DNA of 64,000 nucleotides from Escherichia coli (lineage in GTDB: Bacteria; Pseudomonadota; Gammaproteobacteria; Enterobacterales; Enterobacteriaceae), in NCBI RefSeq assembly GCF_045037415.1, contig NZ_CP173438.1; one strand, written 5' to 3'. A program made the position numbers. Position 1 is the first letter of the stretch, and each line of letters opens with the position of its first letter. Shown piece by piece: positions 61,601 through 64,000 of the stretch.

Positions 61601-64000
61601 GGCATTTCCGCGAACAAACTGCCCGGTATCACCATTGTCTGCATCTGGTCCCCCTTCCGCGCCGGTATTCACAACCGTGTCGGTTGCCATTGCGCCGGAT
61701 TTGACGGCCTGCCAGCCCTTCTCATTAATGACGGTACCCGTTGCAATCCCGCCTTCATGTACCCACTGCTCACCGCCGTTCAGAGTGGTATTCACTGCCT
61801 GCCCCTGAAGGCTCTGTCCTCCTCCGGCACTGATAACCGTGTCTGAAACGCTTCCTCCGGCATTCACTCTCTGAAGACCACCACCGGTGACAGTAGTGTT
61901 GTTGGCGATACCGCCATTTTGTATCCATTGTCCGCCGGTATTGGCCTCGTTATCCGGCCCATACTCCAGCCCGGTACTGATGGTCATTCCGTTGGCCGTA
62001 CCGAGGACAATCTGGTTGTCATGATTTGTCAGTGTTCCGTCGTTCACGGTTTCTCCCGCCTGTACAACCGTGTCAGCAGCCAGTGCCGGGACTGATGTGA
62101 CAGCAGCAAGAGACAGTGCAACCGCCACACCGGCGCGTTTTCCCCGTGAGCGGGCCAGTTCGGAGGCCACCACCAGGGTGCCCGTAATGTGATTCCATAC
62201 CAGCCTGTAGCTGGTGTTCAGATGTCGTTTCATCAGCTTTTCCTTACAGAGGGTGAATAAAAAAGCCGGTACCCACAAAAGTGGATACCGGCAGGTACAA
62301 AACAGCATGGTCAGATAAAGTGGTTTTTCCCGGACATAAATGCTTCCCCTCTCTCATCCGCCAGAGAAGTATCAGTCCGTTGTGTGCAATTCCGTTCTGC
62401 ATGATGAAGAGATTCAGCTGCCTTTTCGCAGACCATTAACCACTATAAACGATCGATGGTAACGATCGATACCTGTTTTATCGATCGTTTTATTCTATTA
62501 ACAGCAGAGCAGTCACGCAAGAGAAACAGGAGGGGGATGGAGTGTTTGTATCATGTTTTCAGTTGGTTAACGCAATGTAATCAGGCATTTCCCCTGGCAG
62601 AGTGTTCAGAAGAAAATCCAGTTCCATACAGCGCGGGCAACAGAGACCACCGTGTCACGGACGGCACGCAGAACCGTGCGTGCAACAGAGGCAATACAGA
62701 CGCTCTCCGCCGTGTCAAATATCCGGTCCACCGCACCGGTAAACTGTTCACGGGCCTGAACCGGACAGATTCCGTGCGCAGCTCGTCCTGCAGGCGGGTC
62801 ATCAGGGGACTGGCGGCATGGTCGGGAAGTGCTGTCATGAGCGCACTGACCAGCGTATCCAGTTCCCAGCCGGTGCGGGCCGATACGGCCACAACCGGAT
62901 GTACGGGCCGGAACAGACGGAATACCGCCTCCGTTTTCTCCCGAATGTTCTGTGCCTGTGCGGGAGAAGGCTGAATGCCGGCCATATCCCATTCATGGCA
63001 GGGCTCCGTTTTGTCGGCCTGCGTCACCACAAACAGCACCTGCTGATGTCCCCGGTGCAGGATGTGTCGCCAGAAATACTCATCCACAGACAGGGCACGG
63101 TCATCGGCTTTAATCAGCCACAGTACCAGGTCAAGTTCAGGCAGAATGTCACGGTACAGGGCTTCATACTCTGCATCCCTGTTCCGGCTCTCGCCCACCC
63201 CGGGCAGGTCAGTGATAACCATGCTGTGACCATGGCCACTCAGACGGAAGCGCCGTACTTCCCGGGTGCCGGCGTGAACATCACTGACCGGGGTGACCTC
63301 CCCCTGAAACAGTGCATTACAGAGTGAGGATTTACCGGCCCCGCTTTTACCCATAATGCCAATCACGGGTTCGTGACTGGTGAGTTTGCGCAGATGTTCC
63401 AGGATGTGACGGGAAAGCGAGTAAGGCAGGGAGGAGAGCGGTTTTTCAATTGCCTCAATGGCATCAGACGGATTCATACATGTATTCCCGGTGAAAAAAG
63501 ACAAAACCCCCGCACACCGGAAAGGTGGCGGGGGACTCACGGAGATAATATATGTCTGAAATTATCTGGAATGTCGGTACCTTTTATACTCTTCAACAAT
63601 CAGGTCATGCAGCATTTCGCCGGTACTGAGTCTTCTGACCCTCGATAATTCTTTGAGCTGCGCCCTGGTTTCTGCGTCAAGAAAAAACTGTACATTGACT
63701 TTATCTTCCTGCATTTTTTTGTACTTGCGCTGCGCCTTGGCCTTATTGAAACTGTTTCTGAAATTTTTTATATCGTCAGGTGAGGTGAGTGGACAGGTAA
63801 CCCATATGTCAAATGAAAGGTGGATTGCGTGGTAAATATCAGCAGAACCAGGAAAACTGGCCAGTTTTTCCAGTGCAATATTTTTTCCCTTCAAATAATT
63901 CCATGTCCATATGCATTCATGTTCGTTCTCCGGGAGGAGGTAACTGAAAGGACTCTTTGATTTAAATGCCCGTATCCATCTGTCTTTGGTCTGGATTATC

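Follow-up and report, generated by a model that had tools for sequence, protein, structure and literature searches.

The region upstream of an Ag43-family autotransporter gene in a 64,000-nt stretch of Escherichia coli DNA (hereafter the window) very probably comprises the promoter, operator, and leader of a class C4 member of this family and works as a classical agn43 ON/OFF switch. The switch is almost certainly real and functional, and the window copy itself presumably phase-varies. The original prediction of an Ag43 regulatory region at this position is borne out by the K-12 spacing and −10 hexamer, the predicted OxyR half-site pair that scores highest in the window, an IS102/IsrC leader, OxyR repression of agn43 in strain EC958, and the pattern of conservation among natural loci. 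The element is ordinary and already known; it is a textbook epigenetic switch, and its exact sequence is present in the reference strain EC958. The mechanism of the agn43 switch has been described (PMC3764049, PMC4872104, PMC2909390, PMC13337833), and flu promoter fragments from EAEC 042 have yielded ON or OFF clones (PMC9431211). The features of the locus are collected in Table 1.

Table 1. Features of the Ag43-family switch locus, in window coordinates, listed in the direction of transcription.
Feature	Coordinates	Strand	Remarks
YeeP-like GTPase gene	62581..63480	−	NCBIfam and Pfam GTPase matches; "GTPase family protein" in identical strains
−35 hexamer TTGCGT	62515..62520	−	3/6 to TTGACA; 17-nt spacer to −10
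−10 hexamer TAGAAT	62492..62497	−	5/6
OxyR half-site A (predicted), ATAGAATAAAACGAT	62484..62498	−	8/10 to ATAGnTnnnAnCTAT; overlaps −10 and GATC-I
5′ leader RNA, homologue of K-12 IsrC/IS102 (Rfam RF00124)	62252..62488	−	cmscan
GATC-I (distal Dam site)	62483..62486	−	at or adjoining predicted transcription start
GATC-II	62464..62467	−	19 bp downstream of GATC-I
OxyR half-site C (predicted), ATCGTTACCATCGAT	62452..62466	−	8/10; ends within GATC-II and GATC-III
GATC-III (proximal Dam site)	62451..62454	−	13 bp downstream of GATC-II
Intrinsic terminator/attenuator	62257..62292	−	terminator scan; 12-bp stem GCCGGTATCCAC/GTGGGTACCGGC, 4-nt loop, then TTTTTTAT
Shine-Dalgarno AAGGA	62241..62245	−	7 nt before ATG; kept in all alleles
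Ag43-family autotransporter gene	59387..62233	−	translation: 948 aa + stop; PGAP "cah", WP_021526504.1

The 372-bp intergenic region, whose 5′ edge is the stop codon of the GTPase gene, holds exactly three GATCs. Counted on the minus strand from the G of each site to the A of the ATG, the upstream distances are 253, 234, and 221 nt, and the sites span 218–253 nt, so that the predicted distance of ~220–250 bp was correct. The range first given for the region, 62233–62486, covers all three sites but ends at GATC-I and leaves the promoter out. The minus-strand orientation of the gene had not been stated. Clustering of GATCs is by itself not unusual. Of random placements of 221 GATCs in 64 kb, ~70% contain one or more triples confined to 36 bp, and a second real triple exists in the window at 39747–39781. 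The arrangement GATC-N15-GATC-N9-GATC occurs a single time in the window, both strands considered, with an expectation of ~0.005. Its 19/13 spacing is that of K-12 agn43. MAFFT placed a 13-nt gap between the K-12 and window operators, which is a misalignment; an ungapped comparison anchored on TAGAAT gives identical GATC spacing. Homologues of the sequence are found in the agn43 regulatory regions of 4019 out of 5426 complete E. coli genomes, and the triad adjoins a promoter ahead of an Ag43-family gene. By itself, a cluster of GATCs is weak grounds for calling such a switch; the discriminating features are exact spacing, overlap with OxyR motifs, and promoter context.

A generic promoter scan of the region called nothing because its threshold was 9/12 and the promoter scores 8/12; the promoter was therefore assigned by homology. 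K-12 agn43 and 10 other alleles have an identical TAGAAT, equally far from GATC-I, and the hexamer is almost invariant across 118 metagenomic loci. The TTG of the −35 hexamer and the hexamer spacing are kept in all 11 promoter-retaining alleles, K-12 among them. As in K-12, the −10 hexamer sits inside half-site A, 5 nt before GATC-I. Half-site C begins 32 bp past half-site A, which is identical in K-12, and together they form the best and only OxyR half-site pair scoring 16/20 in the 64 kb on either strand. Half-site A is a putative OxyR contact, derived from the consensus and not from a footprint, and the choice of half-sites that OxyR would contact is likewise a prediction from the DNA sequence.

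Transcription probably starts at or next to GATC-I, and the Rfam IS102 model begins at 62488 (ACGAUC...). The leader aligns with the whole of this model (1–206 of 206) and scores 68.1 bits (gathering score, 46; E = 6.9e-11). The terminator that closes it folds with −24.1 kcal/mol (z = −9.0) and ends ~12 nt upstream of the Shine-Dalgarno sequence, and its stems are invariant in 12/12 alleles, including K-12. A 52-codon ORF in the leader (62402–62244), which reads through the terminator, was rejected as a leader peptide; it lacks a Shine-Dalgarno sequence, is disrupted by a frameshift in the O157-type leader, does not occur in the K-12 type, and has mostly non-synonymous variants. In EC958, 5′ RACE placed the agn43-yeeR-irmA operon's transcription start 228 bp upstream of the ATG, a result obtained on the other agn43 copy of that strain. 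In the window copy, this distance falls between GATC-II and GATC-III rather than at the predicted start ~255 nt upstream, a point against the scheme given below. In metagenomic loci, both operator types are followed by a YeeR-like ORF, so linkage does not reveal the leader type of the EC958 agn43-yeeR-irmA copy.

The window switch and that of K-12 agn43 (flu) have in common the −10 hexamer, the −10/GATC-I block TAGAATAAAACGATC, the triad spacing, the register of half-sites A and C, the terminator hairpin, and the Shine-Dalgarno sequence, and the window leader matches Rfam IS102. They differ in the 15 bp that separate GATC-I from GATC-II (GATAAAACAGGTATC against AATATCTATTTTATC), and the middle half-site of K-12 is therefore absent from the window. 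This half-site, B, lies 22 bp before C in K-12, where it reads ACGATCAATATCTAT and scores 6/10; the score in the window is 2/10. A perfect 10-bp inverted repeat, ACGATCGATA...TATCGATCGT, stands between GATC-I and GATC-II in the window. The −35 region and the promoter spacer also differ. The window leader exceeds that of K-12 by 31 nt, and its central part has diverged; megablast consequently aligns just the final ~100 bp with K-12.

Conservation was examined in 118 metagenomic loci that were picked by a terminator anchor, independently of the triad. The full triad is retained in 111 of them. About 6% of natural loci have only two GATCs, and most of these precede intact genes. The window-type operator is the majority form, with 102/118 metagenomic loci and ~3400 of 5426 genomes, and the K-12 type is a minority (16/118 metagenomic loci). 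Among 64 window-type haplotypes, the number of variant haplotypes per column is 0.33 for GATC positions and 0.35 for OxyR-specified positions, as compared to 5.4 for unspecified half-site positions and 6.7 for the −35/−10 spacer. In half-site C of the 102 window-type loci, variation is concentrated in five central positions, and the outer ATCG/ATCGAT is fixed. In these population data, the GATCs and the OxyR-specified positions bear a sequence signature of selection. Scans of genome contigs with the terminator hairpin and the gene start gave no match, which provides no measure of spread beyond E. coli.

Our analysis fits the following scheme. A sigma-70 promoter, TTGCGT-17 nt-TAGAAT, would initiate transcription from GATC-I or its immediate vicinity. 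An OxyR tetramer would bind the operator as long as the GATCs are unmethylated, with half-sites covering the −10/GATC-I and GATC-II/III segments; bound OxyR would occlude the promoter and keep Dam away from the GATCs, and the gene would be OFF. Methylation of the GATCs by Dam would block OxyR binding and allow transcription, giving the ON state. Replication would then generate hemimethylated DNA on which Dam and OxyR compete anew, and because this competition recurs at each replication, the state would be heritable and yet flip at low frequency. On their way to the ribosome-binding site, transcripts would also have to get past the intrinsic terminator that closes the ~237-nt IsrC-like leader, and this would constitute a second, attenuation-type control.

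The gene downstream of the switch is intact. Its ORF runs uninterrupted from the ATG at 62233–62231 to the stop at 59389–59387, with no internal stop codon upon translation. The protein scores 1994 bits against a cutoff of 1200 with the NCBIfam equivalog HMM NF033177, residues 1–948 aligning to profile positions 1–948 of 948, and Pfam recovers the modular architecture of a type Va autotransporter (ESPR, residues 6–52; six AIDA repeats; AC_1, 488–599; Autotransporter, 673–923). Identity to K-12 Ag43 is 74%, with 101 gap positions, and the suspicion that the passenger represents an allele distinct from K-12 was well founded. Residues 53–340, the N-terminal passenger, are 86–90% identical to K-12 Ag43 and 68–82% identical to O157 Cah, whereas residues 341–600 are 94–96% identical to O157 Cah and 45–65% identical to K-12. 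The top PDB match is 7KO9, the Ag43 of UTI89 (class C4), with 1136 bits over residues 52–613; 7KOH, the class C2 Cah of EDL933, scores 965 bits. Class C4 is defined as SL1-EJ2-BL2 (Ageorges 2019), an SL1 (K-12-type) N-terminal passenger joined to an EJ2-BL2 (EDL933-type) distal passenger. Typing against the Ag43 subfamilies, which had been proposed as a check, places the gene in class C4; judged by its segment identities and best PDB match, the protein is a mosaic Ag43 of this class. For the UTI89 class C4 Ag43, cell aggregation by self-association has been shown (PMC8993888).

UTI89 Ag43 (7KO9) appears to share the SL1-EJ2-BL2 mosaic, with a K-12-like N-terminal passenger and a Cah-like distal part, although it comes from another strain and island and the likeness is known at the level of a structure match rather than residue by residue. 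The Cah of EHEC O157:H7 (class C2; 7KOH) is similar in length (949 aa vs 948 aa) and 94–100% identical in the distal passenger, autochaperone, and barrel; its gene shares the operator type, the GATC triad, and the PGAP gene name with the window. However, the SL2-type N-terminal passenger of EDL933 is not found in the window protein, which is closer to K-12 Ag43 in that segment, and the O157 cah leader has a 1-nt deletion and a diverged block ahead of the terminator. The PGAP name "cah" is loose because the N-terminal passenger is nearer to K-12 and 7KOH scores below 7KO9. The name "flu" is loose as well because the RefSeq annotation is "cah".

The window is from the pandemic E. coli clone O25b:H4-ST131, and the locus lies on a CP4-44-like island. 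Over a 401-bp region, EC958 and each of the 60 best-ranked genomes show 100% identity to the window, and those of the 60 that name a serotype or sequence type are O25b:H4/ST131. In most of the ST131 genomes among these matches, the region is present at a single place. Deletion of oxyR in EC958 raises agn43 transcripts 121-fold (PMC4807369); EC958 carries two agn43 loci, and because of the second locus this qRT-PCR result is not assignable to the window copy. More than 99% of the chromosomal GATCs of EC958 are Dam-methylated, and the authors of that study suggest competition from DNA-binding proteins as a possible cause of the unmethylated remainder (PMC4659465).

Other readings of the locus were weighed against this evidence. 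The switch could work but differ from that of K-12 in OxyR affinity, in ON/OFF rates, or in bias, and might be mostly ON or mostly OFF. This reading, which modifies the main explanation rather than replacing it, seems to us possible though somewhat unlikely. It draws on the low score of half-site B with A and C in identical register, on the inverted repeat that replaces the K-12 middle half-site, and on the finding that affinity and GATC number set Dam-dependent phase variation (PMC2909390); the window-type operator is nevertheless the majority form with the same selective footprint on its GATCs, and OxyR repression in EC958 is strong. It is improbable that the triad mainly drives a stand-alone sRNA, an IsrC/IS102 homologue ending at the terminator, with minor read-through to the adhesin. 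The full-length Rfam match does end at a strong terminator, and IsrC is catalogued as an sRNA (PMC12266141), but PMC5389530, with reference to Wallecha 2014, regards IsrC as the leader of flu, with antitermination controlling flu. The proximity of the terminator to the Shine-Dalgarno sequence of an intact gene under selection, and the rise of EC958 agn43 mRNA upon loss of OxyR, also argue against this reading.

We consider it highly improbable that the locus is an inherited relic, its GATCs intact by recent descent only and its expression silent or unresponsive to OxyR in ST131. The ST131 copies are clonal and identical, and conservation inside the clone is therefore uninformative; the flanking genes are also decaying, with a frameshift in DUF905 and a 1-nt deletion near 62759 in the GTPase gene relative to strain 4/1-1. 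Against this stand the selective conservation of GATCs and OxyR-specified positions in diverse, non-clonal loci where neighboring positions vary, the intact ORF, and the repression of agn43 by OxyR in EC958. A chance cluster of three GATCs without regulatory meaning is virtually excluded. Although about one 36-bp triple is to be expected in 64 kb and the window holds another at 39747, such a reading is refuted by the exact K-12 spacing, the homology to regulatory regions in thousands of genomes, and the conservation pattern, and the triad adjoins a promoter. The classical agn43 switch is the preferred explanation.

The second triple, at 39747–39781, shows the GATC-pair half-site shape of an agn43-type operator, and its OxyR-pair score of 14/20 is at chance level for the window. 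Scans there turned up no promoter-like site, Rfam family, or tRNA. The triple adjoins the mtnK cluster and might represent a site sensitive to Dam that is so far undescribed.

The operator can also be compared with the Salmonella gtr (P22, LT2) and opvAB switches, which have no sequence homology to it. In these systems, GATC pairs 13 bp apart stand at the ends of OxyR half-sites, as do GATC-II and GATC-III. From the published GATC coordinates (PMC2909390), we infer a half-site offset of 32 bp in gtr, which matches the A–C offset in the window; according to the authors, the gtr half-site spacing fits reduced OxyR (PMC2909390). Whereas agn43-type switches have a single repressing OxyR site, gtr combines three half-sites with four GATCs, and OxyR can occupy either of two positions there, an activating or a repressing one (PMC2909390). 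It is conceivable, though we regard it as unlikely, that the K-12 operator behind the agn43 paradigm is atypical, the majority type seen in the window keeping two half-sites 32 bp apart.

The discovery value of this locus is small, the only nuance being a majority operator type without the K-12 middle half-site. Behind the RefSeq name "cah" stands a class C4 Ag43 mosaic rather than O157 Cah. Work on aggregation and biofilms in ST131 must reckon with ON/OFF heterogeneity, a warning already given for Ag43 in general (PMC3764049). If OxyR uses the K-12 middle half-site, the window operator is a weaker match to the consensus. If OxyR binds the window operator only in an extended mode with half-sites 32 bp apart, operator types could set lineage-specific switching rates, and the same would apply to the ~6% of natural loci with two GATCs.

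The 372-bp intergenic region 5' of the Ag43-family gene contains exactly three GATC sites, numbered I to III from distal to proximal. The original prediction had placed three GATCs about 220-250 bp 5' of the start codon, and the measured distances of 253, 234 and 221 nt agree with it; the range given, 62233-62486, encloses the triad but leaves out the promoter, which lies beyond GATC-I. GATC clustering by itself is unremarkable: when the window's 221 GATCs are placed at random, ~70% of placements contain a triple spanning no more than 36 bp, and a second real triple is present at 39747-39781. 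The arrangement GATC-N15-GATC-N9-GATC occurs once in the window when both strands are searched (expected ~0.005).

Features of the Ag43-family gene and its regulatory region, listed in minus-strand order
Feature	Position	Strand	Details
-35 TTGCGT	62520-62515	minus	17-nt spacer to -10
Candidate OxyR half-site A	62498-62484	minus	8/10; includes -10 and first three bases of GATC-I
-10 TAGAAT	62497-62492	minus	GATC-I starts 5 nt after hexamer
Leader	62488-62252	minus	Rfam RF00124 (IS102, IsrC RNA), full model, 68.1 bits vs gathering score 46
GATC-I	62483-62486	minus-strand reading	G 253 nt before A of ATG
GATC-II	62464-62467	minus-strand reading	G 234 nt before A of ATG
Candidate OxyR half-site C	62466-62452	minus	8/10; ends within GATC-II and GATC-III
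GATC-III	62451-62454	minus-strand reading	G 221 nt before A of ATG
Leader terminator	3' end of leader	minus	12-bp hairpin, -24.1 kcal/mol, z = -9, then TTTTTTAT
Shine-Dalgarno AAGGA	~12 nt past terminator	minus	ATG 7 nt further
Ag43-family gene	ATG 62233; stop 59387-59389	minus	948 codons

The second tight triple (GATCs at 39747, 39760 and 39778; spacing 13 and 18) lies within a conserved 740-bp non-coding stretch from mtnK (minus strand, ATG 39311) to an island junction at ~40050. Its 13-bp GATC pair shares the shape G-ATCGnnnnnAnCGAT-C with the OxyR half-sites of agn43 and gtr. A further 7/10 half-site match lies 31 bp on; the resulting 14/20 pair is at chance level for a stretch of this composition, the window. 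Neither a promoter-like site nor an Rfam family or tRNA was found near this triple.

Scoring against the OxyR consensus ATAGnTnnnAnCTAT gave two 8/10 matches at the operator, half-sites A and C. They are offset by 32 bp and form the sole 16/20 pair in the 64-kb window (spacings 21-23 or 31-33 bp, both strands); their use by OxyR is predicted from the consensus. Toledano, in 1994, reportedly found that reduced OxyR contacts two major-groove pairs separated by one extra helical turn. For Salmonella gtr, GATC coordinates of -110 and -46 with three equally spaced half-sites lead us to infer the same 32-bp offset. The authors of PMC2909390 state that the gtr half-site spacing fits reduced OxyR.

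The leader would add a second layer of control. IsrC antitermination controls flu expression according to PMC5389530, which cites Wallecha 2014. IsrC homology predicts a transcription start near 62488, ~255 nt before the ATG. In the agn43-yeeR-irmA operon of EC958, an ST131 reference strain, the start mapped by RACE is 228 bp before the ATG; projected on the window copy, this distance falls between GATC-II and GATC-III, unlike the IsrC-predicted start. The published operon is not the window copy, since a DUF905 gene directly follows the adhesin gene here and yeeR-irmA is absent downstream. In identical strains this DUF905 gene (59158-59352) carries a frameshift according to the annotation. A 52-codon ORF within the leader (62244-62402, minus strand) runs across the hairpin of the terminator to a stop codon in the Shine-Dalgarno region. 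It probably does not encode a leader peptide, as it lacks a ribosome-binding site and its frame is not kept in O157-type or K-12-type leaders.

By the established mechanism of K-12 agn43, OxyR on the unmethylated operator represses transcription and shields the GATCs from Dam, methylated GATCs block OxyR binding, and replication reopens the competition, yielding heritable ON and OFF states with a switching rate of ~10^-3 per generation (PMC3764049, PMC4872104, PMC2909390, PMC13337833). The exact window regulatory sequence is present in EC958, whose genome has two agn43 loci. More than 99% of EC958 chromosomal GATCs are methylated (PMC4659465), indicating that Dam is active. Deletion of oxyR in EC958 raises agn43 mRNA 121-fold, an increase not assignable to either of the two loci (PMC4807369), and clones of EAEC 042 flu promoter fragments are either ON or OFF (PMC9431211). 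Given the K-12 mechanism and the evidence from EC958 and EAEC 042, we consider it very likely that the window copy is governed by a functional Dam/OxyR switch combined with an attenuating leader.

The 401-bp regulatory region has matches in 4019 of 5426 complete E. coli genomes, covering at least 80% of its length in 3434. Identity is 100% in the best 60 genomes, EC958, JJ1886 and a number of strains with an ST131 label among them. For K-12, megablast aligned only the last ~100 bp. In an alignment of twelve regulatory regions, ten have the window operator type, ahead of genes 948, 949 or 1039 codons long. K-12 agn43 shares with the window the -10/GATC-I block, the GATC spacing, half-sites A and C, the terminator and the Shine-Dalgarno sequence. 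The two diverge over the 15 bp that separate GATC-I from GATC-II. The K-12 leader is 31 nt shorter, and K-12 has a third, middle half-site, ACGATCAATATCTAT, which scores 6/10 and lies 22 bp before C; the window equivalent scores 2/10. In HUM3355 (L014, NZ_CP093317.1, 1-600), the promoter and whole triad are replaced by IS1, whereas the distal leader and terminator remain and the 948-codon gene is apparently intact. This natural allele lacks the switch.

Metagenome contigs were scanned with the terminator 3' arm and T-tract, an anchor independent of the triad, giving at least 120 stretches, 118 with sufficient upstream sequence. Among the matches listed, all three GATCs are present at 19/13 spacing in 111 of the 118 loci; the other seven (L021, L030, L033, L062, L084, L110 and L123) each have one of their GATCs altered by a point mutation (to AATC, TATC or GATG), and none has lost two. 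Four of these mutations hit site II, two hit site I and one hits site III; downstream lie four full-length genes, one truncated gene and two ORFs that are still open where the contig stops. Switching could be altered in these natural two-GATC operators. The 118 loci listed divide into 102 window-type and 16 K-12-type operators, and the exact 50-nt window operator occurs six times among the matches listed. Over the 64 window-type haplotypes listed, variant haplotypes per column number 0.33 at GATC sites and 0.35 at OxyR-specified positions versus 5.4 at unspecified positions within half-sites and 6.7 in the -35/-10 spacer, a descriptive pattern rather than a formal test, as haplotype counts ignore shared ancestry. 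Among the matches listed, half-site C varies most in its five central positions, and the window 'ACC' is one variant. Constraint on the Dam sites and OxyR contacts would produce such a pattern. Among the loci listed (L016-L135), the genes behind window-type operators are 948, 949, 1039 and 1040 codons long and those behind K-12-type operators 1039 codons; a YeeR-like ORF follows both types, and ~10% of loci have truncated genes. Operator type is uncoupled from passenger class.

The product is a full-length match to the Ag43/Cah equivalog of NCBIfam (1994 bits, cutoff 1200), with ESPR, AIDA repeats, autochaperone and beta-barrel. Identity to K-12 Ag43 is 74%, with 101 gap positions; to O157 Cah it is 90%. 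Residues 53-340 are 86-90% identical to K-12 Ag43 and 68-82% to Cah, whereas residues 341-600 are 45-65% and 94-96% identical, respectively; the product reads as a mosaic of K-12 Ag43-like and O157 Cah-like segments. The suspicion that this is a distinct allele is confirmed by the divergence from K-12 and the mosaic structure. Under the Ageorges et al. classification (PMC6668479), the window allele types as SL1-EJ2-BL2, the combination of class C4. This assignment is consistent with the top solved-structure match, 7KO9 (1136 bits), the class C4 Ag43 of UTI89; 7KOH (EDL933, class C2) scores 965 bits. For this allele, the RefSeq name 'cah' fits loosely.

Over its last 25 kb, the window matches O25b:H4-ST131 chromosomes at 100% identity. 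The gene lies in a CP4-44-like module, within an island bounded by the mtnK cluster and fecI, with a YeeP-like GTPase upstream and DUF905, DUF932, an antirestriction protein, JAB (RadC-like), DUF987 and a YeeU/CbtA toxin-antitoxin pair downstream. The GTPase gene has a 1-nt deletion at ~62759 relative to strains 4/1-1 and 4993 (GTCCGGT-TCAGG vs GTCCGGTCTCAGG), which changes the frame for roughly its last 50 codons; either a genuine polymorphism or an error of sequencing could account for it. At ~41469-50743 the island also holds McrB/McrC genes and a neighbouring pair of Esp3I-family methyltransferase genes side by side, one cytosine- and one adenine-specific; the cognate restriction endonuclease is annotated in some ST131 genomes and absent from the annotation in others. 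The fim region was read via the annotation of ST131 strain 4993, which is 99.99% identical over window 1-17084. Adjoining fimE and the fim operon, fimB (~7811-10303) is in two fragments separated by an insertion carrying a ClbS/DfsB-like gene and an ISL3-family ISEc53 transposase, which we take to be the known ST131 fimB insertion; it affects the other classical phase switch, fimS. The transposase gene of an ISEc52 (IS3 family) contains a 2271-bp insertion (17085-19355) that strain 4993 lacks. This insertion codes for a reverse transcriptase/maturase of the group II intron type, whose ORF appears split into 214-codon and 302-codon pieces.

Both the element and the strain are known, and its initial recognition was correct. 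Our analysis adds the precise allele assignment, a mosaic of class C4, and shows that, among the matches listed, the majority operator in nature is without the K-12 middle half-site.
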